Part shown: piece by piece, positions 1,839 through 28,721 of the stretch
Numbering within the stretch: position 1 is the stretch's first letter
Layout of the letters: every line of letters begins with the position of its first letter
DNA from: Candidatus Dormiibacterota bacterium
Lineage (GTDB): Bacteria; Chloroflexota; Dormibacteria; Aeolococcales; Aeolococcaceae
Assembly: GCA_035948615.1 (NCBI GenBank)
Contig: DASZJB010000083.1
Location: 1 to 41,453 of the forward strand
DNA length: 41,453 bases
Direction of reading: 5' to 3'
Program-made: the position numbers and the translations under genes
The notes under the pieces: model-generated
Databases searched by the model: none
Seen by the model: the letters and a program-made list of their open reading frames with translations, nothing else
Told to the model about the DNA's origin: nothing

Positions 1839-2777
1839 CTAGGCCATCCTCGTCCAGGCGATGAGCTCGTCCGCCGCCATGGTGTTGATGACCATTTCGG
1901 CTGAAACATCGCAGGCGGTAGCGCGCTCGCATCCGCGCAGCTGCCACTCGAGCTGGCCCGGCGCGTGCGCGTCGGTGTCGACGGCGACCCGGCATCCGGC
2001 CTCGATCGCGAGCTTCAGCAAGCGCTTTGGGGGATCGAGCCGTTCCGGACGCGAATTGATCTCGACCGCGACCTGATGCTCGCGGCACGCCGCGAAGACG
2101 GCGTCCGCGTCGAACTCCGACTCAGGTCTCCCGCGGCCGACGACGATGCGCCCGGTGCAGTGACCGAGGACGTCCATGTGCGGGTTGCGGATGGCATTGA
2201 GCATCCGCGGTGTCATCTCCGCCTCCGGCATGCGCAGCTTCGAATGCACGCTGGCCACCACGACATCGAGCTCGCCGAGCAGGTCCGGCTCCTGATCGAG
2301 CGAGCCGTCTTCGAGGATGTCGACCTCGATGCCGGTGAGGATGCGAAACGGCGCGAGCCGCTCGTTGATGCCGCGCACCATATCGAGTTGTTCGCGGAGC
2401 CGCTCAGCGCTCAACCCGCGCGCCACGGTGAGGCGCGGTGAGTGATCGGTGAGGGCGACGTACTCGTGACCGAGGGCGATAGCGGTCCGAGCCATGTCCT
2501 CGATGGGGCTGCCGCCGTCCGACCAGTCCGAATGCACGTGGCAGTCACCGCGCAGCGCCTGGCGCAGCGCCAGCGCGTCAGCCGCAATGGGCGCGGCCTC
2601 CGTTTCGAGGCGTTGCAGGTACGCAGGTGTCGCTCCCGCCAGCGCCTCCTCGATGACCCGCGCGGTGACCGGCCCGATCCCCGCAAGACCGTGGAGTGTC
2701 CCGCGTCTGGTCCGTTCCTCGAGCTCCTCATCGGGAAGCGCACGAATCACGGCGGCCGCGTTGCGAAAGGCACGCAC
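1839..2777 (-). CDS. PHP-domain metal-dependent phosphoesterase with an N-terminal HhH-like region (PolX C-terminal-like)
   Basis: PHP His/Asp motifs are present: CHVHSDWSDG, LTDHS, ASVHS and DTDAH. The N-terminus reads YRVRAFRNAA...GIGPVTA. The only canonical start is GTG 2777, and the start is uncertain (see finding). Confidence 0.8.
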   Translation of the reverse strand: MRAFRNAAAVIRALPDEELEERTRRGTLHGLAGIGPVTARVIEEALAGATPAYLQRLETEAAPIAADALALRQALRGDCHVHSDWSDGGSPIEDMARTAIALGHEYVALTDHSPRLTVARGLSAERLREQLDMVRGINERLAPFRILTGIEVDILEDGSLDQEPDLLGELDVVVASVHSKLRMPEAEMTPRMLNAIRNPHMDVLGHCTGRIVVGRGRPESEFDADAVFAACREHQVAVEINSRPERLDPPKRLLKLAIEAGCRVAVDTDAHAPGQLEWQLRGCERATACDVSAEMVINTMAADELIAWTRMA

Positions 2778-2864
2778 GCGGTACGTGGGTTCGCGTTCGC
2801 GTTCGAGGATGTATGCAATGCGCTCGAGTGCTGCGGTGGCGTCGTGCCGGCTTGCGCCCAGGGG

Positions 2865-7889: not shown

Positions 7890-8039
7890 ATGGACGCGCC
7901 TGCTCCATACATCCACTGGGGCTTCATCCTTATCTCGCTGCCGAATTTCGTCCTCATCTGCGTGATGGTGCTGCTCTTCGTGCTCGCGCTCGTCGCGCCG
8001 TTCCCGTCGCATGGGCCAAAGGGACCCCGCGATGAGTGA
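7890..8039 (+). CDS. 49-aa single-TM peptide, first gene of the cytochrome b operon
   Basis: Hand translation gives MDAPAPYIHWGFILISLPNFVLICVMVLLFVLALVAPFPSHGPKGPRDE. GGAGG (7879-7883) lies 6 nt before the ATG. Its stop overlaps the cytochrome b ATG 8032 (ATGAGTGA). It is below the ORF-track cutoff. Confidence 0.6.
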   Translation: MDAPAPYIHWGFILISLPNFVLICVMVLLFVLALVAPFPSHGPKGPRDE

Positions 8040-8709
8040 CGAGAGAGCGCCCGTCACCATCGACCCATCGGCCCCGGCTGCACAGCCCGTGGTCGACGAT
8101 GCGACGGGTTGGACAGCATCTGTGCGGCGCCGTGTGGAGAAGACGCTGCCGATCACCGAGTTGCTTCCGACGAAGCAGCCTGCCTACATCGGTTCGTGGG
8201 TCTACGTCTTCGGCGTCGTCACCATCGCCGCGCTGTTCTGGTTGGTGATCAGCGGCGTGGTGCTCGCATTCTTCGGATCCGCATGGTGGCATGTGTCGTC
8301 CGTCGGTCACTTCTTCAACAGCATCCACTTCTGGTCCGTCCAGATGTTCTTCATCTTCATGGTGCTTCACCTCTGGGGTCAGTTCTGGGGAGCGGGCTGG
8401 CGTGACGGGAGGGCCAAGACCTGGATGGTCGGTGTCGTGATCTTCTCGATCAGCGTCGGCACCGCGTTCACCGGATACGTAGTCCAGCAGAACTTCGACT
8501 CGCAGTGGATCGCCATCAACGCCAAGGACGCGATCAACTCGACGGGGTTCGGCGGACTGTTCAACGCACTCAACTTCGGTCAGATGTACGGGCTGCACGT
8601 GATGCTGTTCCCGATCGGCGTGACCCTCCTGGTGGTGCTGCACATCATTCAAGTGCGCGCCAAGGGTGTCGTACGGCCGATCGACGATCCGTTCCAGGTG
8701 ACGCCGTGA
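8032..8709 (+). CDS. di-heme cytochrome b, N-terminal (b6-like, four-helix) type
   Basis: There are two His pairs with canonical spacing: H-x13-H in SIHFWSVQMFFIFMVLH and H-x14-H in GLHVMLFPIGVTLLVVLH. An in-frame ATG at 8011 is an alternative start. 8032 has AAGGGA 7 nt upstream and overlaps the upstream stop codon. Confidence 0.9.
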   Translation: MSDERAPVTIDPSAPAAQPVVDDATGWTASVRRRVEKTLPITELLPTKQPAYIGSWVYVFGVVTIAALFWLVISGVVLAFFGSAWWHVSSVGHFFNSIHFWSVQMFFIFMVLHLWGQFWGAGWRDGRAKTWMVGVVIFSISVGTAFTGYVVQQNFDSQWIAINAKDAINSTGFGGLFNALNFGQMYGLHVMLFPIGVTLLVVLHIIQVRAKGVVRPIDDPFQVTP

Positions 8710-9710
8710 AGGCGTCCAAGGTCGACAAGCAGACCTACTACCGCGGGGTCCGGATGATCCCCTATGACCTCCTCAAGGAGGTCACGATCGCGATGGTCGC
8801 TGTCCTGGGCGTGGTGCTGATCCTTTCAGCCGTGCTGTCCTCGCCCGACGTGCCCTCGGTCACGTTGCAGACCTGGTCGAAGGCGAACCCCATCGACTTC
8901 CTCACCACCGCCTCAGGCGAGCTTTCCGGTTCCACCGTCGTGGCCGGCTACGGACCGCCGTACAACTCCGGGACCGGCTCGGTGCAGAGCTGGGGGCCGC
9001 TGGAGCCCCAGCAGTGGGCCGGTGTGCACGTCCCCATCGACGCACCCAACGACTTCGTGCTCCAGCCCCTCACCCAGGCCACCGCCGGGGATGCCGAACT
9101 CGCCGCTGCATTGACGGCATACCAGGCGGCACCGAGCGACCAGCAGCAGAAGTGGCTCACGAGTTACACGACCGCACTCGGCACGGCGACGCTGGCGTCG
9201 GACGGCACCGTGACCGTTCCCTCTGGAGACTTCGGGCCGGTGACGGTGCTCATGAACCGCATGCTCACGCTGGCCAGGTCCGGCGGCCTGGATGCCCTCC
9301 TCCTGACCAGCGACCACTTTTATCAGACTGACTTCTCGCGGGCGCTGTTGTTCCTGGATGACGGTGGCTACATTGCCGATCTGGCAACGCAGCAGAAGCT
9401 CATCGGCAGTGACTGGGGCGTGATGAACGAGACAGGCCGCTATCCGGGCTCGGCATGGCTCTGGCTTTACACCATGTGGTATCAGATCCCGCCGTTCAAC
9501 TCATCGACCGGATTTCTGGGCATCAGCGCCGCCAACACCGACCTTGCCGTGGTTGGCGTGATGCTCCTGCTGACGGCGCTGCTCTTTCTGGTCCCCTTCA
9601 TTCCCGGCCTGCGTGACATCCCGCGTTGGATCCCGATTCACAAGCTGATCTGGCGCCGTCACTACGCGGAGATGCGCCGAACCGGTGCCACAAACACCAT
9701 GCAGCAGTAG
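8706..9710 (+). CDS. membrane protein: N-terminal TM, ~260-aa extracytoplasmic domain, C-terminal segment resembling the cytochrome b C-terminal / subunit IV ef-loop plus helix
   Basis: GTG 8706 overlaps the cytochrome b TGA (GTGA). TM1 is VTIAMVAVLGVVLILSAVL. The C-terminal WLYTMWYQIPPFN...LAVVGVMLLLTALLFLVPFIPGL loosely parallels PEWYFL.PF...G.....L.LLP. The track ORF part at 5'-side coordinates 8505-8705 was ignored. Confidence 0.85.
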   Translation: MKASKVDKQTYYRGVRMIPYDLLKEVTIAMVAVLGVVLILSAVLSSPDVPSVTLQTWSKANPIDFLTTASGELSGSTVVAGYGPPYNSGTGSVQSWGPLEPQQWAGVHVPIDAPNDFVLQPLTQATAGDAELAAALTAYQAAPSDQQQKWLTSYTTALGTATLASDGTVTVPSGDFGPVTVLMNRMLTLARSGGLDALLLTSDHFYQTDFSRALLFLDDGGYIADLATQQKLIGSDWGVMNETGRYPGSAWLWLYTMWYQIPPFNSSTGFLGISAANTDLAVVGVMLLLTALLFLVPFIPGLRDIPRWIPIHKLIWRRHYAEMRRTGATNTMQQ

Positions 9711-10135
9711 AGGATCACAGCGATGGCGACGTGCATGGCCATCAAGACGGCGACTGCGTCCGCGGGCTGACCGCGGACGAGCAGCCATGCGTCTGGTAGG
9801 AACAGCGCCATGCTCGCCAGGACCATAAGGCATCCATACAGCGCGCGAGGCGCGGAACTGATGCGCGTGAGCACGGGCCAGCCTGCGGCACCGCCGAGGA
9901 CGCCGATGATCGTGAGCTTCGCGTAGTCGTCGAACCGGAAATGCTCGTATCCCGCGGTCCCCGGAAAGATGCGCGTGCCGATGGCGACGAGGATCGCGTC
10001 GGCGGCCAGAGACGCGAGCATGACGATCATGGTTGCGACCGCCAGCCGCATTGGCGTCGGTTGGCGGTGAGACGGCGCCCAATCCAAGCGAGCCATTGCC
10101 AGGGTGCGGTCGATCAACGGAATCTCTGCCCTCAC
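9662..10135 (-). CDS. hypothetical 4-TM membrane protein, apparently leaderless (GTG 10135; alternative ATG 10096)
   Basis: Hydrophobic segments include LAVATMIVMLASLAADAILVAI, LTIIGVLGGAAGWPVL, LYGCLMVLASMALF and VAVLMAMHVAIAVILYCCMVFV. TACGCT lies 6 nt upstream of GTG 10135. The track start at 10291 would overlap the response-regulator gene. Confidence 0.75.
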   Translation of the reverse strand: MRAEIPLIDRTLAMARLDWAPSHRQPTPMRLAVATMIVMLASLAADAILVAIGTRIFPGTAGYEHFRFDDYAKLTIIGVLGGAAGWPVLTRISSAPRALYGCLMVLASMALFLPDAWLLVRGQPADAVAVLMAMHVAIAVILYCCMVFVAPVRRISA

Positions 10136-10141
10136 AGCAGC

Positions 10142-10176
10142 AGCGTATCGTGGGCTCCCTTGCGGAACGGTGAAGG
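10142..10176 (-). promoter_or_regulatory. promoter core: 19-nt motif CCTTCACCGTTCCGCAAGG, N10, TACGCT, N6, GTG start
   Basis: Read on the minus strand, the motif is at 10176-10158, the -10-like TACGCT at 10147-10142, and the start codon at 10135-10133. The same architecture is present at 14952-14909. Confidence 0.5.
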
Positions 10177-10239: not shown

Positions 10240-10914
10240 ATGCATGTCCTGGTCGCTGAAGACGACGCGAAGCTGCTCGAGGTCCTTGCACGAGGGCTGC
10301 GTTCAGCCGGCTACACGGTCGATGTCGCCGCTCGGGGGGATGAGGCGCTCGCCCTGCTCCTGCTGAACAGCTATGCGGCAGCCGTTGTCGACTGGCGAAT
10401 GCCGGTCATGGATGGCATCGACGTTGTCACCGCCATCCGCTCGCGGAGCATGTCCACCCCGGTGCTCATGCTCACCGCCCGCGACACCCCGTCGGACCGT
10501 ATTCATGGGCTCGACGCCGGGTGCGACGACTACATGGTCAAACCGTTTGATTTTCAGGAGATGCTTGCCCGTCTCCGCGCCCTGATGCGACGCCCGTCGG
10601 CGACGCTCGGTGTGCGCCTTCGTGCCGGTGGGCTGAGCATCGATCCAGCGGAGCGACAAGCGTCAGTGAACGGCACGGCGCTGGCGCTCACGCCAACTGA
10701 ATATGCGATCGTCGAGCTGCTGGTGCGCCGGAGTCCCGCGGTGGTGAGCCGCGAAACCATTGCAAACCACGCATGGACTGATGCCCTCGACCCGATTGCG
10801 TCCAACAGCATCGACGTCCACGTCACGAGGCTGCGCGCCAAACTGGTTGGTGCGGGTCTCAGGCTGGAAGCGGTTCGGAGCGTGGGCTACCGGCTGGTGG
10901 AGCGGGAGTCGTGA
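10240..10914 (+). CDS. OmpR/PhoB-family response regulator
   Basis: The receiver domain reads MHVLVAEDD...VVDWRMPVMDG...LMLTA...KPF. The winged-helix output reads LTPTEYAIVELL...VDVHVTRLRAKL...VRSVGYRL. Confidence 0.95.
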   Translation: MHVLVAEDDAKLLEVLARGLRSAGYTVDVAARGDEALALLLLNSYAAAVVDWRMPVMDGIDVVTAIRSRSMSTPVLMLTARDTPSDRIHGLDAGCDDYMVKPFDFQEMLARLRALMRRPSATLGVRLRAGGLSIDPAERQASVNGTALALTPTEYAIVELLVRRSPAVVSRETIANHAWTDALDPIASNSIDVHVTRLRAKLVGAGLRLEAVRSVGYRLVERES

Positions 10915-12134
10915 GCACGCGACTCAGCAGACATGCCCTGCGAGTCGCGCTCATCACAACAGCGGTTGTCGCCGGAGTGATGGTCGCGCTCTGCATCGCG
11001 ATCGACGTGATCGTTGCCCAGACACTGCGCTCGTCCGCCACCAGTCGCCTCACCACCGAACTCACACAATTGTCACAACGTCGCGGTGGACCGATCCTGG
11101 TGGAGCCGGACGTCGATGATCCCGTGCTGGTCTGGGAAGTGAACACCGCCGGCGCGATCGTCTCGTCGACAGCGGGAGCGCCGGTCCTCCCGCCGGGCGA
11201 GTTCGCCGCAGCCTCGCCCTCGGAGACGCAGATTGACGGAGCCGACGTCCTCGTGGCCGGTGTTGGCATTCCCACCGGCAGGCTCATCGGCGCCGTGAGC
11301 CTGGGTAATGAGTCGAAGGCGCTCACGACCCTGACGATCACCGAGGCCATCGTCGTGCCAACACTCCTCGTCCTCGTGTTCGGGGGTGCGTTTGTGGTCG
11401 GGCGGCAGACGGCGGGACCGATCGAACGAGCGCGCCGGCGTCAACTCGAATTCACCGCTGACGCCTCGCACGAGCTGCGCACGCCTCTCGCGGTGATCGA
11501 GGCGGAGACGACGCTTGCGCTGGCGGCTCCCGAACGTACTGGCTCTGATGACGCCACGCTCCGCCGCGTTGCAGACGAGACGCACAGGATGCGCGCCATT
11601 GTCGAGGATCTTCTCTGGCTCGCTCGCTTCGACGCGCTGCCCCCGGATCCGGTCACGGAGCCCGTCGATCTCATCACGGCTGCGGAGGTTGGCGTTCAAC
11701 GGTTCATATCCATCGCCGCTCAGGCGCGGTTGCGTCTCCAGAACGGCAGTGATGGAGCGGCGCTCGCACTGGTCGACGCCCCCGCGGACTGGATCGATCG
11801 ACTCATCGGCGTGCTACTCGACAACGCATGCCGGTATACCCCGGCGAACGGAACGGTGAGCGTCGTGGCATCGCGTGACCGCGATCACGTGCGCCTGACC
11901 GTGAGCGACACCGGTCCGGGCATTCCGCTGGAACGGCGTGCGCGCATCTTCGAGCGGTTTCGCCGCGGGACGAGCGACGGCGGCGGAGCAGGACTCGGCC
12001 TCGCGATCGGTAACGCCATTGTCGAAGCGACCAAGGGTCGCTGGCAGATCGCCGACGTTCCGGGTGGCGGAATCTCAGTCGGAGTCGTCTGGGCGCACTC
12101 GCGCACCCGGCTCGTCGACGGATTCCACCCATAG
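10911..12134 (+). CDS. sensor histidine kinase (two TM, ~110-aa extracytoplasmic loop, HisKA + HATPase)
   Basis: The GTG start overlaps the regulator stop (GTGA). The H-box is FTADASHELRTPL. The N and G boxes are LLDNACRYTP, DTGPGIP and GGAGLGLAI. Confidence 0.95.
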   Translation: MSTRLSRHALRVALITTAVVAGVMVALCIAIDVIVAQTLRSSATSRLTTELTQLSQRRGGPILVEPDVDDPVLVWEVNTAGAIVSSTAGAPVLPPGEFAAASPSETQIDGADVLVAGVGIPTGRLIGAVSLGNESKALTTLTITEAIVVPTLLVLVFGGAFVVGRQTAGPIERARRRQLEFTADASHELRTPLAVIEAETTLALAAPERTGSDDATLRRVADETHRMRAIVEDLLWLARFDALPPDPVTEPVDLITAAEVGVQRFISIAAQARLRLQNGSDGAALALVDAPADWIDRLIGVLLDNACRYTPANGTVSVVASRDRDHVRLTVSDTGPGIPLERRARIFERFRRGTSDGGGAGLGLAIGNAIVEATKGRWQIADVPGGGISVGVVWAHSRTRLVDGFHP

Positions 12135-12314
12135 GGCGGCCCTGGGACAGTCGGCTATTGCTCGACGGGCGTGCTCGAGCACGTCATCGGGGAGCGCTCG
12201 CTGATCGATGACGGGATACCCCCAGTCGTCCATCCGGATGCGCTCCGGGAACAGCTCGCCACACATGCCGTGAGCCTTGCACTTGATCGGATCGACGCGC
12301 AGTCGAACCCTCAC
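12075..12314 (-). CDS. small single-cluster ferredoxin (CxxHxxC...CP type)
   Basis: Hand-trimmed from the track ORF 12075..12761, giving VRVRLRVDPIKCKAHGMCGELFPE...RRAIADCPRAAL. GTG 12314 overlaps the NuoF-like TGA (GTGA). The 3' tail overlaps the kinase gene by 60 nt. Confidence 0.8.
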   Translation of the reverse strand: MRVRLRVDPIKCKAHGMCGELFPERIRMDDWGYPVIDQRALPDDVLEHARRAIADCPRAALWVESVDEPGARVRPDDSD

Positions 12315-13597
12315 CACCAACCGGCCTCTGTCGCGGGCACGGGCAGCAGCGGTCGCTGACCTGAATACCTGCACGGACCGCTCTTGAGGTGATGGCGAAG
12401 ATCCGCAGCAAAGACCTCCATCGCGCTGGAGAGGAAGAGCATCGCCCCATCCGGATGCCTGCAGGCGCCCCGGCCCCGGACGTCGTGCGACCAGCGGACG
12501 AGGAGGTCGAGCGCAGCGGGGCGGGCGCGGCCGGTTGCCACCTTGTGGAACGTCTCGGCAATTGCCGGAAGGCCGACATGGCAAGGTCCGCACTGGCCCG
12601 CGGTCTGGCTGGCGAGAAACGTGAGCACTCGATCCGTCTCGCTGATCCCGCACGTCGTTGCCGTTGCGACCACGAGCACGCCGGTCCCCAACGAAACGCC
12701 GACGGATTGCAGGGAATGGGCGTCGATCGTCTTGCTCCAGATGCGATCCGCCGCAACCCATCGGCCGAAATAGCCACCGAGCAGCACCGTCGCCGGCTGG
12801 CCGTCGACACCGCCGGCCCGGTCAACGATGGCACCAACGGTGGTGTCGCACGTCGCCTCGAGGACACCCGGAGTTCGCACTGCCCCACTGACCGTCAACA
12901 GTGCGGTCCCAGGCGATCGCGGCGTACCCACCGATCGAAACCACGGTGCACCGAAGCGGGCGATGAGCGCTGCATGGGCGAGCGTCTCCACGTTTTGGAC
13001 AAGGGTCGGCAGGTGATCGACACCGCTTTGAAACGGACGGGGAGGGACAATCTTCGGCTTGGCGAGATGGCCGGAGACGCGCGCGACCAAGGCTGTCTCC
13101 TCTCCGGCGACGTACCGGTTCGGCCCGACCAGCACCTCGATGAATCGATCGCTGTCGTCACGCCGCCTGCGCTCCCTGATCGCCGCGCTCAGCGCTGCCT
13201 CCACGTCGCTGTGGGACTTCGTCGTGTAGATGACCACCCGTCGAGCACCGACCGTCTCCGCTGCGTGCTCGAGGCCGTCAAGCACAAGGTGAGGCCGGTA
13301 GGTCACCAGGAAGCGATCCTTGAAGCTCGCGGGTTCGCACTCGGCGGCGTTGGCGACCACGACCGCGTCGCCACCGCGCTTTGTGTGTTCCTTGACCGCC
13401 CGCCACTTGCGGCCCGTCGGAAAGTCGGCCCCGCCCCGCCCGCACAGTCCGCTGGCGTCGAGGGCATCGAGCAGTGCATTCGACTCGGGTTGCGGACGCG
13501 GGCCGAAGCTGGCGAGGTGCGCGTCCAGGTCCTCCGGAACCGGACGCGGCGGGAGCAGACGATGGGCGGGGTTGCCGGCGTCGATCGAGACACTCAC
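12311..13597 (-). CDS. NuoF-like (complex I 51-kDa family) FMN/NADH-binding iron-sulfur flavoprotein
   Basis: It carries GLCGRGGADFPTGRKW and NAAECEPASFKDR (51K domain), and C-terminal TAGQCGPCHVG ... GRGACRHPDG (Fe-S region). GTG 13597 overlaps the upstream gene stop (GTGA). Confidence 0.9.
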   Translation of the reverse strand: MSVSIDAGNPAHRLLPPRPVPEDLDAHLASFGPRPQPESNALLDALDASGLCGRGGADFPTGRKWRAVKEHTKRGGDAVVVANAAECEPASFKDRFLVTYRPHLVLDGLEHAAETVGARRVVIYTTKSHSDVEAALSAAIRERRRRDDSDRFIEVLVGPNRYVAGEETALVARVSGHLAKPKIVPPRPFQSGVDHLPTLVQNVETLAHAALIARFGAPWFRSVGTPRSPGTALLTVSGAVRTPGVLEATCDTTVGAIVDRAGGVDGQPATVLLGGYFGRWVAADRIWSKTIDAHSLQSVGVSLGTGVLVVATATTCGISETDRVLTFLASQTAGQCGPCHVGLPAIAETFHKVATGRARPAALDLLVRWSHDVRGRGACRHPDGAMLFLSSAMEVFAADLRHHLKSGPCRYSGQRPLLPVPATEAGWW

Positions 13598-14613
13598 GCG
13601 GTTGCCTTCTGCGTCGTGAGCGTTCCGCCAATCGCGCCGTTGCCCTGGTTCACGATCTGGATCGCGGCGAGCACGCCGCCGCACCGGGCAGTGACCGAGG
13701 TGTTGCCGATCGTCGCCGGCGCCTGGCAGACGTCTCCACCCGATCGGGTGACCGTGAGCGTCCCGCTGCCGTCGGCATTGGCAACGATCACGAGTTGGAG
13801 CGCGCGGTCACGAGTGTCGGTGAGAGTGGCGGTCGCATGGGTGGGCGAACTCACCAAGGTACCGATGAGTGGATCATTCAGACCGGCTGCGAGGTGCGTC
13901 ACCGGAACGGGCGCAGTTGTGGGCCCAGCCCCAGAGCGTGCCAGCAGATCCGCCGGAGTGCCGGCTGCCTTGGCCCAGCCATGCTCCAGCGGCCCCACCG
14001 CCATCCACAGGATCAACGCACCGATCGAGGCGACGCTGCCGGCAATGCCCAGGAAGCGGAGGGCGGTGAACCTCGGCCCGGCGTGGGCAAGGCGCCAAAC
14101 AAGCGCGGCGATAACGGCCCCCACGCACACGGCGACCAGACCCAGCGCCCAGAGCGACTTGGTGTCCGTCCCCGTTCCCAGGCCGTGGATCACGCCGACC
14201 GGCCAGCTGGCGTACGCGAAGAGGTGCACTCCCCGCCACGTCCGCCAGCCGAGGCGGTGCCGTACGAGGCTCGTCGCAGTGATCGCAATCAGCAACTCGA
14301 ACCCGACCACCCCGAGACCGAGCCACAGAGGGCGGTACGACGCGATGAAGGGCACGAACGCATCGAGGAACGTGAGCTTCGCGAATGGGTCGATGATCGA
14401 CGTGAGGATGTGAATGACCAGAAACAACCCAACCAGCAGTGAGACGTTGCGATGCAACGACTGGACGACGAATCTCGGCCACTCGGGGCGGCTCTCACGC
14501 GACGACGTCAATACCCCCAGGACAACGCTCGCGCTCAGGAGGATGAGGGCGGTATAGCCGCTGGCGCGGGTGGCGTACCACATCGGGGTGGGGCCGGCGA
14601 GTGCCGCTAGCAA
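13594..14613 (-). CDS. ferric-reductase-domain (NOX/FRE/MsrQ-like) bis-heme membrane protein with an extra C-terminal domain
   Basis: The His pairs are H-x13-H (SLHRNVSLLVGLFLVIH) and H-x12-H (GVHLFAYASWPVGVIH), within 6-7 TM segments. The C-terminal ~130 aa are beta-rich and unassigned. The start is TTG 14613 or ATG 14583. Confidence 0.85.
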   Translation of the reverse strand: MLAALAGPTPMWYATRASGYTALILLSASVVLGVLTSSRESRPEWPRFVVQSLHRNVSLLVGLFLVIHILTSIIDPFAKLTFLDAFVPFIASYRPLWLGLGVVGFELLIAITATSLVRHRLGWRTWRGVHLFAYASWPVGVIHGLGTGTDTKSLWALGLVAVCVGAVIAALVWRLAHAGPRFTALRFLGIAGSVASIGALILWMAVGPLEHGWAKAAGTPADLLARSGAGPTTAPVPVTHLAAGLNDPLIGTLVSSPTHATATLTDTRDRALQLVIVANADGSGTLTVTRSGGDVCQAPATIGNTSVTARCGGVLAAIQIVNQGNGAIGGTLTTQKATA

Positions 14614-14626
14614 CGGACGGCCCCGG

Positions 14627-14911
14627 TCAGGATCCGCCGGAGACTGTCACGGGCGCACCGTAGCCGTACTGCGGCGCTTGGATCGGTGCGCTGATGCCCG
14701 GTTGCGTGACGCCGCCGTTGTCGGTGACGCCTGGCTGGGTGGCCGGCGTCGTGGTGATCGTGTGGCCGGGGAGGCTCGTCGCCGCCACGAGCGCGAAGAC
14801 CGCAGTGAACGCCGTCGCCCCGGCCGCTGTGTAGATGGTCAACCTGCGCGCGCGGGCCAGGCCGAGGTCCCTTCGAAGGCGGGCGGAATCCAACTGCGAC
14901 TGTCGCGGCAT
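14627..14911 (-). CDS. 94-aa single-TM protein with a Pro/Thr/Gly-rich extracytoplasmic tail, apparently leaderless
   Basis: It has a basic N-terminus, the TM TAAGATAFTAVFALVAATSL, then TTTPATQPGVTDNGGVTQPGISAPIQAPQYGYGAP. TAGGCT lies 6 nt upstream of ATG 14911. Confidence 0.65.
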   Translation of the reverse strand: MPRQSQLDSARLRRDLGLARARRLTIYTAAGATAFTAVFALVAATSLPGHTITTTPATQPGVTDNGGVTQPGISAPIQAPQYGYGAPVTVSGGS

Positions 14912-14917
14912 GAGCAG

Positions 14918-14952
14918 AGCCTACTCGGCACTGCCTTGCGGGACGGTGAAGG
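14918..14952 (-). promoter_or_regulatory. promoter core: 19-nt motif CCTTCACCGTCCCGCAAGG, N10, TAGGCT, N6, ATG start
   Basis: Read on the minus strand, the motif is at 14952-14934, the -10-like TAGGCT at 14923-14918, and the ATG at 14911-14909. It matches the 10158-10176 copy at 18 of 19 positions, with identical spacing. Confidence 0.5.
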
Positions 14953-14979: not shown

Positions 14980-16362
14980 TCACGGCACCGAGAGCACGCG
15001 CTCCCGGGTGAGTGGTTGCAGGGTCGGGGCGTCTGCCCGCTCCACCGGCTGCCGCAGCGCGATGGTCAGCGTCACCAGCATCGCCGAGGCCGAAATCGCC
15101 GGGAGGGACGTCACCTGGGTGAGCAGCCACCACCAGCCGGTGTGACTGAGTGCGACCAGCTGTGCCGAGGACGACACGTTGGCAATCAGCACCGGCGCGA
15201 GGACCGCGATCGCGACCACGAACGTCGCCGTCGACACCGTCAGCGCACGTGATCGCCACGCCCGGTCCGACGCCATGAGTCCCACCGCTGCGAACACGAT
15301 GATGATCGCGGTCACATAGTGCGCGTACCAGGTGATCGTGCTGGCGAGCAGCATGAAGAGCGTACCGGCGGCGAACTCGGCGCCGCTGACTGCTCGGTTT
15401 CGAGTCCCAGGGCCGACGGCGAAAAACAGCAGGCCAAGCATGACGATGAGGACCGCATAGGTCACCAGGCTGATCATCAGCGAACCCGATTGCGGGATCA
15501 GGACGGCGTGTCCAAAGAGACGGCTCGCCACTCCGCTGATCGACTGGTTGTACAGCCACCCGTCCTGCGCGGAGAGCACGGGGAGCACGCGGGTCACGTA
15601 CTCATGCAGTGTTGCGGTTCCGAACGCGGCGACGCCGAGTGCGAGTCCGGCAGCGACCGTGACGGCACATGCCGCAGCCGCCCGCCACCACCGGCGACGA
15701 ATGATCAGGACAACCAGGACAATCGGTGCGAGCTTGATGGAGGCCGCGATGCCGATCAGCACGCCGAACCGCGTCCGGTGCTCGTGGGTCCACGCATGGA
15801 GCGCGAGGGCGAGCAACAGGAAGATCACCGGATTCATCTGACCGTGCCAGTAGTTGTACGTGGCCGCCGAGAACAGGAACGTGACCAGCGCGCTGATCTC
15901 GAGACGCGGCCACCCTCGAGGCAACAGCGCGTAGGCGGCAACGCCTGTGGCTGCGGCGGTACAGGCGATGGTCAGCCACAGCCAGAGCGTGGCAGCGGCA
16001 GCCGCCGGAACCCAGGCGAGCGGCTGAACGAGGAAGGCGACGACCGGTGGGTAGTCGAATCCACTCAGCGCCACGTTGGGTCGCTGATGGATGAATTGCG
16101 CGTACAGGTCCGTGTGACTGGCGACGGCATGGGCGGCGGCCAGGTACGCGCCGAAATCCTCAAATTCGCCGGCGAAGGTGCCCCTGATGGGCGCGATCAC
16201 AAAGGTGATCACGCCCGCTATCACCGAGGCAATCGCGGCGGCACGGAGCACGAGCAGTCCCAGTGCGCGGGCGCGGGCATCTGGACGAAACCGGCGGTGG
16301 GTTCCGGCGGGGCTGCCCGTGCCGGGCAGGCTGAGGTGGCCTGGGTCGATAACCTCCGCCAT
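14980..16362 (-). CDS. GT-C polyprenol-phosphate-dependent glycosyltransferase, GT87/DUF2029-like (mannosyltransferase-like)
   Basis: It is a polytopic membrane protein. FEDFGAYLAAAHAV...DLY, YPPVVAFL and IKLAPIVLV resemble PimE/GT87-type proteins. It was trimmed to ATG 16362 because the track N-terminus (to 16746) is Arg-rich and antisense to the neighbouring gene. Confidence 0.8.
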   Translation of the reverse strand: MAEVIDPGHLSLPGTGSPAGTHRRFRPDARARALGLLVLRAAAIASVIAGVITFVIAPIRGTFAGEFEDFGAYLAAAHAVASHTDLYAQFIHQRPNVALSGFDYPPVVAFLVQPLAWVPAAAAATLWLWLTIACTAAATGVAAYALLPRGWPRLEISALVTFLFSAATYNYWHGQMNPVIFLLLALALHAWTHEHRTRFGVLIGIAASIKLAPIVLVVLIIRRRWWRAAAACAVTVAAGLALGVAAFGTATLHEYVTRVLPVLSAQDGWLYNQSISGVASRLFGHAVLIPQSGSLMISLVTYAVLIVMLGLLFFAVGPGTRNRAVSGAEFAAGTLFMLLASTITWYAHYVTAIIIVFAAVGLMASDRAWRSRALTVSTATFVVAIAVLAPVLIANVSSSAQLVALSHTGWWWLLTQVTSLPAISASAMLVTLTIALRQPVERADAPTLQPLTRERVLSVP

Positions 16363-16490
16363 CAACGGTCGAGTTTGATCGGGGTGCGGGGTGCCGGACG
16401 CCCTGGGTTGCCAAACCGTTACCCGGGTCGCCCAATGTCGTAGGCCCATGTAAAGATGCACCCCATGCGTCGTGGCCCCAGGATGACGCC

Positions 16491-18047
16491 GTGGTGAGCC
16501 GGCGACCGTGGTGGCACAACCGATTCGCCTATGGTGTGAGCGCCTTGGGGGCCGTCGTCGCCGTCCTCTACCTCTACAGAATCGGCAGCGATCCGCCCGG
16601 GCTCTACGCGGATGAGGCCAGCATTGGCTATAACGCCTGGACCATCGCGCACTTCGGGACCGACCAGTACGGCAACCACTTCCCGTTGTTCTTCGTGGAC
16701 TTCGGAGACTACAAGGGTCCGGTTGCGACCTATCTTGTAGCGCCACTCACATGGATCTTCTCGAGCGGCGCTGCAGTCGTGCGTCTGCCGAGTGTCGTGG
16801 CGGGCATCGCCATCTCCATGGTGGCCGGGCGAATCGCATTCGTGCGCACCCACTCCTTGCTGATCACACTCGTGACCATCTCGTTCACGGCAGTGCAGCC
16901 GTGGATCTTCCTCCAGAGCCATACGATGCTCGAGGGAAACGTCCTCATGGTGCTCTGCGTGATGTGCGCTTGCTGGTGCGTCGCAGAAGCCGATGTCGAC
17001 GGAGCATCAGCGAGATGGTGGACCGGCGCCGGCGTGGCTCTGGCGATCTGCATCTACACGTACTCGATCGGCCGGCTGCTTGCTCTGTTGGTCGCAGGGG
17101 TTGTTGTGCTGAGCTACGCTCGAGTTGGTCGAGACAAGCTGCTTCGATTCCTGTTCCCGATCGCCGCCGCATACGTGGTCCTGGGGATCTGGTCGTTCGA
17201 GAACCCCGGAGCGCTGCTCGGGCGCTTCCAGAGCGTAGGTCTTTTCGCCAACCATCCGTCAATCGTCAGCGCCGCGGTGACGTTTGCCGGCAACTACCTG
17301 AGCTATTTCAGCCCCAACTTTCTCGTCCTCCACGGTGACGGGAACCTCCGACAGACCACTGGATTCGGCGGCGTTCTGGTTGACGCCACCATCCCTCTCA
17401 TGATCATCGGCGCCGGCTGGCTCGTCGCGACTCGACGAACGGCGTACGCGCGGTTCGTCATGCTCGGTGCGCTGGTCGCTCCCATACCCGCCGCGCTGAC
17501 GCTCTTCGCACCGCACGCGCTGCGTGGCGCCGGACTGTTCCCCTTCCTCCTCCTCATGATGGTGGAAGGCACGTCCTGGGTGTGGAGGCAGTTGCGGACG
17601 CACAGCCTGGTCGCCATCGCGCTCGCCGCCATCGTGCTCGCCAGCGCCACGCCGTACTTTGTCGATTTCTTCGGCGGCTACCCAGCCCGCGCCGAGGTTG
17701 AATTCGAAGCCGGCGAAGGACCGGCGCTGGCGATGGCGTACACCGACGCTGCTGCCGGGGGGCACCGTCTGCTTCTCTCCGCGGCGCTCAACCAACCGAT
17801 CGTGCAACTGATGTACACGCTTGGTGCGCCCCCACCCCAGAGTGACTTTCTGCGTCGGGCTCGGATCACCGAGGTCAGCACGCTGGCGCAGCTCGATACC
17901 GCAGACCCTGGGGATGTGCTCGTCATCGGTCCCGGCGACACTCCGCCGCCACGCGCCCATCTCCTCTTCGTGGTCAACGGCGGACGGATCGTCCGCGCGC
18001 CCACGACCGTGTCCAGCCTTGATCTCCTCCGCGTCTACCAGGACTGA
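16491..18047 (+). CDS. GT-C glycosyltransferase, GT39/ArnT-PMT-like
   Basis: The first-loop acidic motif YADEASIGYNAW is present. There are about 11 TM segments followed by a C-terminal soluble domain. It is divergent from the GT87-like gene. Confidence 0.8.
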   Translation: MVSRRPWWHNRFAYGVSALGAVVAVLYLYRIGSDPPGLYADEASIGYNAWTIAHFGTDQYGNHFPLFFVDFGDYKGPVATYLVAPLTWIFSSGAAVVRLPSVVAGIAISMVAGRIAFVRTHSLLITLVTISFTAVQPWIFLQSHTMLEGNVLMVLCVMCACWCVAEADVDGASARWWTGAGVALAICIYTYSIGRLLALLVAGVVVLSYARVGRDKLLRFLFPIAAAYVVLGIWSFENPGALLGRFQSVGLFANHPSIVSAAVTFAGNYLSYFSPNFLVLHGDGNLRQTTGFGGVLVDATIPLMIIGAGWLVATRRTAYARFVMLGALVAPIPAALTLFAPHALRGAGLFPFLLLMMVEGTSWVWRQLRTHSLVAIALAAIVLASATPYFVDFFGGYPARAEVEFEAGEGPALAMAYTDAAAGGHRLLLSAALNQPIVQLMYTLGAPPPQSDFLRRARITEVSTLAQLDTADPGDVLVIGPGDTPPPRAHLLFVVNGGRIVRAPTTVSSLDLLRVYQD

Positions 18048-26861: not shown

Positions 26862-28721
26862 GTGGGGGACAGCTTGAAATCCGCAGTCATGGGCAGCGCA
26901 GGAACCGGTCCGGCCGTGAAGCCGGTGGGGCCGGGAGTGGCGTTGCAACCGGTGATCGACCTCATCGACCGCGTCGACCTGGGGTATGAGGCGCTGCCAC
27001 GCCCCCTGGACTCCGCGCCCGGTGCGGTGATCGCAGCGGCCCTGAAGCTCGCCCAGCACACCGGCCCGGCGGTCCTGCTGATCCCGCTTCACCGGGACGT
27101 GATCACCGCGAAGGACTTTGATCTCGCGTCGCTGGCGCGGCGCCACGCTGTGAATCCCGGTGAGCTTGCCTGGATCGTCCAGAGCGAGACCGAGGCCGGC
27201 CTCGACGACGTGGGCCTTCGCCGTCTCCAGTCACTTCGCGACCTCGGGTTCCTGCTGGCGGTTGACGGTGTGCTCTCGCCGATCCTCGGCCAGAGGCTGA
27301 TCGCCGATCTCCGACCCGACTTCGTCTTCCTCGACGAGTCGGTGCCGGCCCGGCTGCACGAGAATGAGGTGGCAAAAGCCCACCTTGCGGCGGCCGTGGT
27401 GTACGTCGCCCGGCTGGGAGGCCGGATCGTCGCCCGCGGCATCGACACCAAGGCAACGGCCACGGCGATGGCCGAGCTTGGCGTCCAGTACGGGGTCGGT
27501 CCCCACCTGGCCCACCCGCTGGTCGTCGATGCCGAGATCGCCGAGCCCATGGATGAGGTGATCCCGGTGGCGTGGTTCCAGCGCCGCGAGGTCCGAGTCT
27601 TCCGGGAACGTGGCGACACGCTGAGCGCACCGATCGAGATGACGCCGCTGCCACTGCCTGGCGCCACCACGCTCGACGATCGGAGCTTCGCCCGGTTCCT
27701 GGTTGACGCCGCCCGCACCCTGCAGGCGGAACACGATCCCGAGCGGATTCTCGAGATCGCCGCGGAGCGGCTCGGCCAGGTGATGGCGTTCGATCGGCTC
27801 GCGATCTTCGAGGCGGACTGGGAGCGGCATCGCTTCCGGCCGCGTGTCCTCGCCGGTCCCGGCACCGAGGGGTTCCTCGCGATGGAGGTGACCTTGAACG
27901 ACGGCATCACCGGGTGGGCGTTTGGGCGCGGTCAGCCGTACCGCTGCGGTGATACCGACTCGCACCCGGCCGCGTCCACCATCCCGGGCACCGCGCGCGA
28001 GCCCGAGTCGCTGATCGCGATCCCGCTGGTTGCCGGTGACCAGCGCCTCGGTGTGCTCGACGTCTGGCGCGACAGCCTGGACGCCTTCACCGAGGAAGAC
28101 CTCGAGCGCTGTGCCTTGCTCGGATTCATCACCGCGGCGGCGTGGAGCAACGCTCAGATGTACGGCGAGCTGGAGCGACGCGCGCTGACCGATGCGCTGA
28201 CCGGGCTGTTCAACATTCGCTGGTGGCGGGACATGGGCCCGCGGGTCATGGCTCAGAGCCTCCGCACCGGGGCCGGCGTCGGCATCCTCCTCATGGACCT
28301 CGATCACTTCAAGCAGGTCAACGACAGTGCCGGTCACGCCGCCGGTGACTCGGTGTTGCGTGCGGTTGCGCGCGCGATCCGTCGCGTGGTGCGTGACAGC
28401 GACTACGCGGTGCGCTACGGCGGCGAGGAATTCCTCATCGTGCTGACCAACTCGACCGTCGACGGCGCGATGCGCGTGGCTCAGGCGCTGCAGAGCGCAG
28501 TTGCCGAGTTGCGGGCTCCCACGTCGGAGATCGAGCGGGTCACGGCATCGATCGGTGTCGCCGTCTTTCCCGACCACGGGCTCGAGCTCGACGATGTTGT
28601 TGCGGCGGCAGACCTCGCCATGTATCAGGCCAAGCGCGATGGCCGAGATCGCATTGCGGTCGCTCCCATCTCGATGCGCGAGCTGTCGGACGACGATCTG
28701 TCAGGCGACCGGCTTTCCTGA
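26862..28721 (+). CDS. paralog: degenerate EAL / GAF / GGDEF diguanylate cyclase
   Basis: The EAL-like region keeps GYEAL, but it reads LLAVDGV, FLDES and ARGIDT where DDxGxG, KxD and EGxE are expected. The GAF region parallels the neighbour (LQAEHDPERIL...). The GGDEF domain has the RDSD I-site before GGEEF. The start is GTG 26862 or ATG 26889. Confidence 0.9.
   Translation: MGDSLKSAVMGSAGTGPAVKPVGPGVALQPVIDLIDRVDLGYEALPRPLDSAPGAVIAAALKLAQHTGPAVLLIPLHRDVITAKDFDLASLARRHAVNPGELAWIVQSETEAGLDDVGLRRLQSLRDLGFLLAVDGVLSPILGQRLIADLRPDFVFLDESVPARLHENEVAKAHLAAAVVYVARLGGRIVARGIDTKATATAMAELGVQYGVGPHLAHPLVVDAEIAEPMDEVIPVAWFQRREVRVFRERGDTLSAPIEMTPLPLPGATTLDDRSFARFLVDAARTLQAEHDPERILEIAAERLGQVMAFDRLAIFEADWERHRFRPRVLAGPGTEGFLAMEVTLNDGITGWAFGRGQPYRCGDTDSHPAASTIPGTAREPESLIAIPLVAGDQRLGVLDVWRDSLDAFTEEDLERCALLGFITAAAWSNAQMYGELERRALTDALTGLFNIRWWRDMGPRVMAQSLRTGAGVGILLMDLDHFKQVNDSAGHAAGDSVLRAVARAIRRVVRDSDYAVRYGGEEFLIVLTNSTVDGAMRVAQALQSAVAELRAPTSEIERVTASIGVAVFPDHGLELDDVVAAADLAMYQAKRDGRDRIAVAPISMRELSDDDLSGDRLS

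Follow-up and report, generated by a model that had tools for sequence, protein, structure and literature searches.

A candidate electron-export chain ending on a tethered flavin, encoded by a conserved gene cluster of Candidatus Dormibacterota and its relatives

Four packed minus-strand genes in a 41,453-nt stretch of Candidatus Dormibacterota DNA (the whole stretch analysed, referred to below as the window) encode a 94-aa small protein, a ferric-reductase-domain (FRD) membrane protein, a NuoF-like flavoprotein and a ferredoxin. We hold with moderate confidence that these proteins form a dedicated chain that would carry electrons out of the cell from cytoplasmic NAD(P)H and would end on a tethered flavin. 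In this chain, the FMN of the NuoF-like protein would take a hydride from NAD(P)H, and its N3-type Fe-S cluster would pass single electrons to the small [3Fe-4S] ferredoxin. The ferredoxin would reduce the inner heme (H54/H130) of the FRD protein, from which the electron would cross to the outer heme (H68/H143). The outer heme would then hand it to an FMN, joined by ApbE through a phosphoester linkage to the C-terminal Ser of the 94-aa protein, whose disordered, membrane-anchored tail of about 50 aa would hold the flavin at its tip. This flavin would reduce an envelope or extracellular acceptor; Fe(III) or another metal is our most likely guess, and oxygen or an oxidized envelope component are possible alternatives. 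The preliminary description of this DNA proposed a path from NADH through FMN, Fe-S, ferredoxin and two b hemes to the outer face, which fits the domains and the synteny and missed the flavin carrier. It is the motif of the small protein, together with the ApbE gene placed between the small-protein and FRD genes in relatives, that makes a covalent flavin the most likely end of the chain.

The gene cluster and its electron-transfer proteins

The cluster comprises the following features.
14627..14911, minus strand: 94-aa small protein, predicted flavinylated terminal carrier; the tail ends VSGGS-stop
13594..14613, minus strand: 339-aa ferric-reductase-domain bis-heme membrane protein (PF01794, residue invariance, AlphaFold2 models)
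12311..13597, minus strand: 428-aa NuoF-like flavoprotein (Pfam, NCBIfam score, NDUFV1 alignment, columns over 79 orthologues)
12075..12314, minus strand: 79-aa single-cluster ferredoxin (C12-x2-H15-x2-C18 ... C56-P57; Fer4_15)

All four ORFs are present in the packing first described, and the sequence reads as reported at the GTGA start/stop overlaps (13594-13597 and 12311-12314) and at the 13-nt gap (14614-14626). The suggested taxon, Actinobacteria, has to be replaced by Candidatus Dormibacterota; the host, a member of the phylum Dormibacterota, lives in soil. When the 20 neighbouring ORFs lying from 473 to 30894 were scanned with Pfam, they yielded no NuoE/NuoG, hydrogenase, formate dehydrogenase or MsrP, as had been stated for the window, and no ApbE.

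The FRD protein matches Ferric_reduct (PF01794) with 35.5 bits against a curated cut-off of 28 (E 1.2e-8), which confirms its place in the ferric-reductase family. Its two His pairs, described earlier as H-x13-H and H-x12-H, are invariant in 81 homologues (H54/H68 with 13 residues between them and H130/H143 with 12), and H119 is not conserved in this set. These residues are putative heme ligands, with H54 and H130 predicted on the inner side and H68 and H143 on the outer side. The AlphaFold2 model has six TM helices, which puts an earlier count of six to seven at the lower number, and a C-terminal eight-strand beta domain (pLDDT about 89). The best Foldseek matches are SpNOX (8qta/8qt6) and STEAP1/2; for the beta domain, E 0.02 is the limit that no PDB match improves on. 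Pfam detects no fused FNR-like FAD-binding/NAD(P)H-binding dehydrogenase domain, and the C-terminus is all-beta. A conserved GPLxHGWAKAAGTP follows TM6, and C296 and C311 are invariant in the beta domain. The C-terminal part of about 130 aa, previously left unassigned, is thus a separate domain as proposed, now predicted to be extracytoplasmic and found to be lineage-specific: the 193-aa Streptomyces FRD protein lacks it and ends with a positively charged tail after TM5. From the charge distribution, loops 38-46, 117-126 and 175-186 are predicted inside, and the N-terminus, the segment after TM6 and the beta domain outside. The gene could start at TTG 14613 or ATG 14583; the conservation of residues 1-10 among relatives speaks for the upstream TTG. 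Source annotations name the FRD homologues MsrQ/YedZ, and these names are automatic.

The NuoF-like protein was described as being of the complex-I 51-kDa type, and its Pfam matches to Complex1_51K (E 2.5e-38) and NADH_4Fe-4S (E 8e-18) bear this out; SLBB falls just below its cut-off. It keeps the FMN loop GRGGADFPTGRKW and GEETAL, and it aligns with bovine NDUFV1 at about E 6e-50. Its score against the NCBIfam nuoF model TIGR01959 is 229.5 bits, far below the cut-off of 558.65, and the scanned ORFs contain no NuoE; identity as a NuoF equivalog was therefore rejected. In 72 of the 79 orthologues Ala replaces the first Cys of the N3 CxxCxxC; C336, C339 and C379 are retained, and the family has a further conserved cysteine of its own, C409. 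Since one canonical N3 cysteine is absent, the Fe-S cluster may be altered. The ferredoxin, recognized earlier by its CxxHxxC, matches Fer4_15 (Pfam, E 3.7e-9), and each of its motif residues (C12, H15, C18 and C56-P57) is kept in 73-79 of 79 orthologues. By likeness of this motif to actinobacterial ferredoxins, we take its cluster to be of the [3Fe-4S] type.

In 77 of 79 species-level loci from Dormibacterota, Chloroflexota and Actinomycetota, the FRD, NuoF-like and ferredoxin genes stand side by side and point the same way, and the other two loci lie on contigs that end early. The same cluster is present in three cultured Streptomyces genomes, and more than 100 close relatives of the NuoF-like protein occur in Streptomyces. 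As the co-directional packing is kept across three phyla, the concern that the genes might not be syntenic in relatives falls away. A second concern was that the NuoF-like gene might regularly belong to a hydrogenase or formate dehydrogenase locus; in every locus not cut short it sits between the FRD and ferredoxin genes, and it is not a member of a hydrogenase, formate dehydrogenase or complex I locus. No conserved terminal reductase or acceptor-related gene was found in the cluster across the related loci.

The small protein and its linkage to ApbE

The 94-aa protein begins with an Arg-rich N-terminus (two RR pairs), continues with a single hydrophobic segment rich in Ala/Gly/Thr and closes with a tail of about 48 aa rich in Pro/Thr/Gly/Gln; it matches no Pfam or NCBIfam family. 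The tails in orthologous loci are low-complexity linkers of 32–128 aa. In all 76 loci with enough upstream DNA (the other three of the 79 are cut off upstream), the small protein lies upstream of the ApbE or FRD gene and ends exactly in [VIT][ST]G[GA][ST]-stop, a type of terminus found in just 5 other ORFs out of 6591. This terminus resembles the ApbE flavinylation motif and is a predicted site of modification. Its third position is mostly G, such that SGGS predominates over the canonical SGA[ST]; the Streptomyces small proteins end in D-x-T-S-G-A-S, in agreement with the extended form of the canonical motif. The FRD, NuoF-like and ferredoxin proteins have no such conserved motif. To our knowledge, flavinylation of a protein at its C-terminal residue is without precedent. 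That the small protein is a bystander is at odds with its conservation in three phyla, always with the ApbE-type motif at the stop codon.

An ApbE gene (PF02424, E 4.5e-47) lies directly upstream of the FRD gene in 38 of the 79 loci, and an ApbE is also linked in Streptomyces; in these orthologous clusters it is placed between the small-protein and FRD genes. The other 41 loci have no ApbE within 6 kb of the operon, and tblastn with five ApbE queries found none in the whole window. In the clade of the window the enzyme would have to come from a gene at another genomic site. An unlinked ApbE of the same subfamily occurs on another Dormibacteria contig, where the third gene upstream of it is a partial Oxidored_molyb gene. 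The terminal [ST]G[GA][ST]-stop is retained in every ApbE-less locus, while the rest of the tail diverges freely, which argues for continued selection on the modification site.

The foremost alternative, in line with the path first described, dispenses with a flavin carrier: the outer heme would deliver electrons directly to an acceptor, soluble or bound, the 94-aa protein would be a structural or assembly subunit, and its C-terminus would be unmodified in the clade of the window. It gains from the missing ApbE in the window and near the operon in the 41 loci, from the closeness of the TM fold to SpNOX and from the established direct reduction of substrates at the outer heme of NOX, FRE and STEAP. 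However, the motif persists in every ApbE-less locus despite the diverging tail, ApbE is interposed between the small-protein and FRD genes in 38 loci, and Dormibacteria do possess an unlinked ApbE of the same subfamily. We therefore consider direct delivery unlikely.

Comparison with known systems

Meheust et al. (2021; eLife, PMC8238504) defined 'MsrQ-like' flavinylation clusters as a bioinformatic class and proposed such an electron-export pathway for them; one sentence of that paper notes 31 clusters with a NuoF-like (PF10589) protein. The linkage to ApbE and the terminal motif mark the present system, as judged from its sequences, as a variant of these flavinylation-associated electron-export systems. 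The earlier statement that no characterized system has this composition is thus correct as to experimental characterization and is qualified by those 31 clusters. Both share a PF01794 bis-heme protein with ApbE, a flavinylated extracytosolic partner (here predicted) and a presumed NAD(P)H donor. The partner here differs in lacking FMN_bind, DUF2271 and DUF3570 and in carrying its motif at the stop codon of a disordered tail. Moreover, the ApbE lacks a signal peptide, a ferredoxin is always the third component on the cytoplasmic side, and the clade of the window has no linked ApbE. By the definition of Meheust et al., a PF01794 gene lies at most five genes from an ApbE, FMN_bind, DUF2271 or DUF3570 gene; proximity to ApbE is found in 38 of 79 loci and in Streptomyces and not in the window, with no ApbE in 41 kb. 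The definition also places a signal peptide or lipidation site on one of the flavinylation genes, and none was seen on the linked ApbE sequences read by eye. As the pipeline demanded a signal peptide in a target gene, most clusters of the present type would have been excluded. In the literature searched, we found no report of a flavinylation site at the extreme C-terminus outside a recognized domain, as is putatively present here, or of an ApbE in such a system that, like the predicted proteins here, lacks a signal peptide. The last carrier of this chain is probably a flavin bound at the C-terminal residue of a small, flexible, anchored protein, and no carrier of this kind appears in the same literature.

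With the NOX/FRE enzymes (SpNOX, PDB 8qt6/8qq7), the system has in common the TM fold, the four His residues with 13/12 spacing and a predicted route from cytoplasmic pyridine nucleotide to the outside. In contrast to these enzymes, there is no fused FNR-type domain, and reduction would fall to a separate complex-I-type FMN/Fe-S protein and a ferredoxin. Helix h1 is also absent, so the FRD N-terminus is predicted outside, and an extra TM6 and the beta domain are present in the lineage of the window. The NuoF-like protein shares the Complex1_51K, SLBB and NADH_4Fe-4S architecture and the conserved FMN/NADH loops with NuoF/NDUFV1 and their hydrogenase and formate dehydrogenase relatives; it differs from NuoF/NDUFV1 in having no NuoE/NuoG partner, Ala in place of the first N3 Cys and a new conserved C-terminal Cys. 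In Listeria flavin-based extracellular electron transfer (Ndh2, EetA/B, FmnB = ApbE, PplA), NADH electrons likewise reach a covalently flavinylated membrane-tethered surface protein and then extracellular acceptors such as Fe(III). However, the membrane step there is the quinone pool and EetA/B with no heme protein, PplA is a lipoprotein with folded FMN_bind domains, and FmnB is extracytosolic.

In E. coli MsrPQ with Fre, a periplasmic methionine sulfoxide reductase system, an FRD-family heme protein also relays cytoplasmic or membrane electrons to the periplasmic side, where MsrQ feeds MsrP. MsrQ has fewer heme ligands, whereas all four NOX-type His residues are present here. Instead of a small-molecule or mineral acceptor, the FRD protein might similarly supply an extracytoplasmic repair or respiratory enzyme encoded elsewhere, such as an MsrP-type molybdoenzyme, as the MsrQ/YedZ names of its homologues and the partial Oxidored_molyb gene near the unlinked ApbE would allow. 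Those names are automatic, however, and neither the scanned ORFs of the window nor five Pfam-annotated related clusters contain an MsrP-type gene. The donor is also different: MsrQ draws on quinol or Fre and not on a dedicated, operon-encoded NuoF-like protein and ferredoxin. Such a supply role seems rather improbable.

Promoter elements, export and topology

Three further features lie upstream of the operon and of a neighbouring gene, and a two-component system lies between them.
14934..14951, minus strand: CTTCACCGTCCCGCAAGG, a conserved 18-bp element lying across the -35 region of the operon promoter
14918..14923, minus strand: -10-like TANNNT hexamer TAGGCT, 6 nt before ATG, read from the sequence
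10158-10175, within 10133..10175, minus strand: another copy of the 18-bp element; TACGCT comes 10 nt further on, and GTG 10135 after 6 nt more
10240..12134, plus strand: OmpR/PhoB-type response regulator (10240-10914) and histidine kinase (10911-12134), from Pfam and NCBIfam

The two exact copies of the element in the window compare with 0.16 expected by chance, and the element occurs at the equal relative position in 33 Dormibacterota loci. A sigma-70 consensus scan gave no match, and the spacing of element, 10 nt, TANNNT, 6-7 nt and start codon recurs across most Dormibacterota loci. This recurrence, with TAGGCT only 6 nt before the ATG, suggests that the operon transcript is plausibly leaderless. 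The second copy precedes a gene for a DUF6069 membrane protein (9662-10135; a weak Pfam match, E 1.6e-4), in the intergenic region common with the response-regulator gene. In the window, and likewise in 29 related loci, the operon and the DUF6069 gene are each preceded by the element, with identical spacing downstream of it. The two-component genes are convergent with the operon, the 3' end of the kinase gene overlapping that of the ferredoxin gene by 60 nt, and about 60 of the 79 loci, in three phyla and in varying arrangements, have an OmpR-type regulator, a kinase or both in the flanking DNA that was retrieved. The element is a probable operator of the adjacent response regulator, and through it this system would probably switch on both the operon and the DUF6069 gene. 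A putative operator so shared beside a two-component system was not reported in the literature searched.

The nearest models to the two-component proteins are PmrA, CopR and RppA, which are metal- or envelope-responsive, and all score below cut-off. They bear on the idea that the chain generates extracellular superoxide or H2O2 from O2, as NADPH oxidases do, for signalling, competition or the oxidative breakdown of organic matter or minerals. Both the spacing of the hemes and the fold resemble those of NOX, reduced flavins are known to react readily with O2, and the soil hosts are taken as largely aerobic. Even so, no gene of the cluster points to the handling of reactive oxygen species, and control by such a two-component system fits a metal or envelope role at least equally, so we regard this function as improbable.

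The flavin-carrier reading itself meets an objection in the linked ApbE. None of the linked ApbE proteins carries a signal peptide (sequences read by eye), each starts with the ApbE domain, and in one locus (L052) a leader would not fit even into the maximal ORF; a signal-less ApbE, beside a tail predicted outside, weighs against this reading. So do the missing ApbE in the window and near 41 of the operons, the prevalence of SGGS at the terminus, the lack of precedent for a flavinylated last residue, the absence of a conserved reductase or acceptor gene and the missing N3 cysteine of the NuoF-like protein. We propose that flavinylation probably takes place in the cytoplasm before the tail is exported. 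An RR pair lies at most 16 aa from the hydrophobic segment in 60 of 73 small proteins, and no Pfam or NCBIfam family, Tat-signal models included, matches these proteins even at permissive E-values, which also speaks against the reading; Tat can carry small unstructured hydrophilic chains. The fuller picture, in which FMN is ester-linked to the last residue of a disordered anchored polypeptide, itself devoid of any flavin-binding domain, by a cytoplasmic signal-less ApbE, the product is exported perhaps by Tat and a two-component system acts as the switch, is put forward tentatively. If true, it would add a new class of ApbE substrate and a new route for electrons out of the cell, and a flavin on a flexible line of 30-130 residues would reach acceptors up to several nanometres from the membrane.

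An inverted small protein, with a cytoplasmic tail whose FMN would link the NuoF-like protein and ferredoxin to the inner heme in place of the FAD of NOX, would suit the signal-less ApbE and the several Arg/Lys after the hydrophobic segment in Solirubrobacterales, but it is very improbable, given that positive charge is greater on the N-terminal flank in nearly every lineage, the NuoF-like protein already has its own FMN, tails of the Pro/Ser/Thr/Gly-rich or acidic Ser-rich kind are usual for linkers outside the cytoplasm, and one Streptomyces homologue has a lipobox-like LAATAGC.

Operon composition and relation to known systems

Direct reading of the window places four open reading frames on the minus strand at 12075–14911, with the coordinates of the preliminary description, and both GTGA overlaps of stop and start codons were likewise borne out, as was the gap of 13 nt.

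Genes of the operon and their profile matches
14627–14911, minus strand: 94-aa small protein; no Pfam or NCBIfam match
13594–14613, minus strand: 339-aa ferric-reductase-domain membrane protein (FRD); Ferric_reduct (PF01794), above threshold
12311–13597, minus strand: 428-aa NuoF-like protein; Complex1_51K, SLBB and NADH_4Fe-4S (Pfam)
12075–12314, minus strand: 79-aa ferredoxin; Fer4_15 (Pfam)

Profile searches thus put the membrane protein in Ferric_reduct and its partners in Complex1_51K/SLBB/NADH_4Fe-4S and Fer4_15, as had been anticipated, and the electron path proposed earlier, from NADH through FMN, Fe–S, ferredoxin and two b hemes to the outer face of the membrane, is a reasonable one. 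The nearest FRD homologues are from Candidatus Dormibacterota MAGs, with identity up to 98%; therefore, the organism is not an actinobacterium, and the actinobacterial origin assumed at first is not borne out.

The operon is best classed within the MsrQ-like flavinylation-associated electron-export systems, as a variant. These were defined by Meheust et al. (2021; PMC8238504) and comprise 1797 clusters, mostly actinobacterial, which usually carry a fused NAD-binding domain and in 31 cases a NuoF-like protein. Compared with these systems, the donor module here is the NuoF-like protein with a [3Fe-4S] ferredoxin, the likely flavin carrier is a small protein that has no domain and bears its motif at the C-terminus, the flavin transferase ApbE is signal-less, and there is a dedicated putative two-component operator. 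On the donor side, a NOX/FRE heme module would run on a complex-I-type flavoprotein and ferredoxin instead of a fused FNR domain. The 2021 survey pipeline demanded a signal peptide (PMC8238504), a requirement that would exclude most of the clusters analysed here. Experimental work on a cluster of this type was not found in the literature, only two bioinformatic papers from the Light lab. Dormibacterota are an uncultured soil phylum, to which the operon would add a regulated export route for reducing power. Iron acquisition, mineral respiration, envelope repair and ROS production all depend on electron transfer outside the cytosol. Mainly by analogy, metal reduction would be the favoured role.

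With each GTDB species represented by one genome, a scan recovered 79 loci, which belong to Dormibacterota, Chloroflexota and Actinomycetota (Solirubrobacterales, Streptosporangiaceae and Acidimicrobiia). The FRD gene is followed by the NuoF-like gene in 78 of the 79 loci, and the NuoF-like gene by the ferredoxin gene in 77; the loci that break this order are contigs ending early. The three genes are therefore syntenic in 77/79 loci, which bears out conservation of the neighbourhood in relatives. In none of these genomes does the NuoF-like gene belong to a locus for hydrogenase, formate dehydrogenase or complex I, so neither a loss of synteny nor membership of such a locus speaks against the preliminary description. 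Single-linkage clustering of six-frame ORFs was abandoned for the neighbourhoods because spurious high-GC ORFs dominated, and targeted tblastn was used instead. An exhaustive profile-free search returned 420 representative FRD clusters at E ≤ 1e-30. Three cultured Streptomyces, namely S. phaeochromogenes, S. graminofaciens and strain NPDC101225, carry the cluster between proS and rimP–nusA, and its presence in cultured strains opens it to direct testing. Close NuoF-like relatives are widespread in this genus, with more than 100 protein clusters at ≥74% identity.

The FRD membrane protein and its donor module

The two His pairs of FRD described earlier, H54/H68 with 13 residues between them (H-x13-H) and H130/H143 with 12 (H-x12-H), are invariant in 81 homologues, among which H119 varies. 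The AlphaFold2 model shows six transmembrane helices, with the His pairs on helices 2 and 4; of the six or seven helices first proposed, six thus stands and seven does not. The top PDB matches of the fold are the NADPH oxidase of Streptococcus pneumoniae and STEAP1/2. Compared with NOX, FRD lacks helix h1 and has an added sixth helix. Loops 38–46, 117–126 and 175–186 carry a net positive charge, and the N-terminus, loops 75–94 and 147–153 and the segment after TM6 are neutral. This distribution argues for a predicted topology in which the N-terminus and everything beyond TM6 would lie outside the cytoplasm. The Streptomyces orthologue, with 193 aa, five helices and a positively charged tail at its end, is consistent with this charge-based topology.

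Beyond TM6, an invariant motif (GPLxHGWAKAAGTP) is found, and the model contains an eight-stranded β domain (pLDDT 88.6) with two invariant Cys residues on adjacent strands. The β domain is lineage-specific and has no convincing PDB relative (E ≥ 0.02, TM ≤ 0.43); galectin, CYTH, FABP and TbpB-like barrels were rejected as its fold, since they are weak PDB matches only, at E ≥ 0.02. Among metagenome proteins, P0201 joins a six-helix FRD to a full NuoF-like protein and has no β domain; it was left out as evidence of interaction, and if genuine, this fusion would be at odds with the predicted FRD topology. Three further apparent fusions, P0229 and P0233 (ApbE with FRD) and P0130 (FRD with part of the NuoF-like protein), were dismissed as assembly or frameshift artefacts, since their sequences show internal deletions or Arg-rich segments read out of frame.

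The alignment of the NuoF-like protein with NDUFV1 spans its full length (E ~6e-50), and both FMN loop and GEETAL segment are retained; its score is far under the NuoF equivalog cut-off of NCBIfam. In the CxxCxxC motif of cluster N3, the first Cys is replaced by Ala in 72 of the 79 orthologues. C336, C339 and C379 are conserved, together with an extra C-terminal Cys, C409, and we infer that the fourth N3 ligand may have been relocated. The ferredoxin conserves its CxxHxxC...CP motif, which we take to be of the actinobacterial [3Fe-4S] type.

The small protein as candidate flavin carrier

On a Solirubrobacterales chromosome, ApbE (FAD:protein FMN transferase; E 4.5e-47) is encoded immediately upstream of FRD. 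The same arrangement occurs in 38 of the 79 loci, including three from Dormibacterota and both from Chloroflexota, and in further clusters outside these 38. A small ORF lies upstream of ApbE, or of FRD where there is no ApbE, in 76/79 loci, and in the remaining three the contigs stop short upstream of its position. Its product is built like the 94-aa protein of the window, with an Arg-rich N-terminus, a single Ala/Gly-rich hydrophobic segment and a low-complexity tail of 32–128 residues, 80% of which are Ser, Gly, Pro, Ala, Thr or Gln. The C-terminus is exactly [VIT][ST]G[GA][ST]-stop in 76 of the 79 loci (VSGGS in 42, ISGGS in 12, TSGAS in 6, VTGAT in 1), an ending shared by only five of ~6500 other ORFs in the same loci; the Streptomyces small proteins end in D-x-T-S-G-A-S. 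The target motif of ApbE is [S/T]GA[S/T] (Meheust et al., 2021; PMC8238504). Since FRD, the NuoF-like protein and the ferredoxin contain no conserved motif of the ApbE type, the small protein would be the sole plausible substrate for ApbE among the cluster's products. Profile searches found no FMN_bind or other known domain in it.

Flavinylation of the tail would mean that a protein can be an ApbE substrate without having a folded flavin-binding domain. Some ApbE substrates are still unidentified according to Meheust et al. (2021; PMC8238504), and the present system would explain some of those ApbE genes that stayed 'orphan' in that survey. A 2024 follow-up discusses FMN_red proteins whose unstructured C-terminal extensions carry flavinylation motifs; there, the motif adjoins a folded flavin site.

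The tail is predicted to lie outside the cytoplasm, because the N-terminal flank is the more positive one in almost every lineage and a lipobox-like sequence occurs in one Streptomyces homologue. Where ApbE is linked, it lacks a signal peptide: in one locus (L052) its ORF cannot be extended upstream and the protein starts directly with strand one of the ApbE domain, and the best 120 ApbE relatives have 292–347 aa. Flavinylation in the cytoplasm, followed by export, would be the simplest reconciliation of a signal-less ApbE with an outside tail. Twin Arg residues directly before the weakly hydrophobic segment in 60 of 73 small proteins suggest export by Tat, a conjecture that no Tat model matches; Tat-signal and FMN_bind models gave zero matches on eight small proteins.

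In the window and its closest relatives (L001–L024 and others), the small gene sits right next to FRD, and ApbE is missing from this position. No ApbE was found within 6 kb of the operon in these relatives or anywhere in the 41-kb window, and comparison of the best 120 ApbE homologues with the contigs of this clade gave no match among the matches listed. The terminal motif is nevertheless fully conserved in this clade, while the tail diverges. An unlinked ApbE of the same subfamily occurs on another Dormibacteria contig, and we infer that an ApbE is encoded elsewhere in the genomes of the window's clade. The unlinked ApbE (L084; Candidatus Dormibacteria contig JBOHUE010000150.1, 1–5357) is signal-less and has no FRD gene nearby; it adjoins a YceI-like gene and lies downstream of a partial Oxidored_molyb gene, a GAF histidine kinase gene and a CheR-PAS gene, which may be another flavinylation context. 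In S. graminofaciens AP018448 (L083, 2400–2835), the small gene (2470–2835, plus strand, ending in ATSGAS) is absent from the public gene calls, which list an antisense ORF of 139 aa instead; thus, the family is likely under-annotated.

Regulation and neighbouring genes

An OmpR-type response regulator and/or histidine kinase flanks ~60 of the 79 loci; the pair is convergent and downstream in Dormibacterota and Chloroflexota, and co-directional and upstream in Solirubrobacterales. PmrA, CopR and RppA types are its nearest NCBIfam models and were rejected as assignments, all scoring far below cut-off. An 18-bp element, CTTCACCGTYCCGCAAGG, has two exact copies in the window, against 0.16 expected by chance.

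Copies of the 18-bp element
14934–14951, minus strand: before the small gene; followed by 10 nt, TAGGCT, 6 nt and ATG
10158–10175, minus strand: before the DUF6069 gene; followed by 10 nt, TACGCT, 6 nt and GTG

The second copy lies in the intergenic region common to the DUF6069 membrane-protein and regulator genes, and its element–TANNNT–start spacing indicates that the true start of the DUF6069 gene is probably GTG 10135. Both copies recur, with unchanged placement, in 29 Dormibacterota loci. This recurrence and the like spacing point to a small regulon with leaderless transcripts, putatively under the adjacent regulator. A scan for the sigma-70 consensus found no promoter.

At 12075–12134, the 3' ends of the histidine kinase gene (plus strand, ending at 12134) and the ferredoxin gene (minus strand, ending at 12075) overlap by 60 nt, so that the last 20 codons of each lie on opposite strands of the same DNA. 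At 8011–9710 (plus strand), a cytochrome b/b6-like gene (8011–8709), for which ExtP is the nearest NCBIfam model at a score under its cut-off, precedes a conserved ~336-aa ORF that matches no family. In the closest Dormibacterota loci, these two genes keep their synteny with the DUF6069 gene and the two-component system. Elsewhere in the window, two divergent paralogous EAL-GAF-GGDEF genes (cyclic-di-GMP turnover) lie side by side at 23769–26246 (minus strand) and 26862–28721 (plus strand). Lastly, a GT87 glycosyltransferase gene (14980–16746, minus strand) is divergent from a large membrane-protein ORF (16491–18047, plus strand) with no Pfam match and a faint resemblance to ArnT only; because the maximal ORFs overlap by ~250 nt, the real start of one or both must lie further inside.
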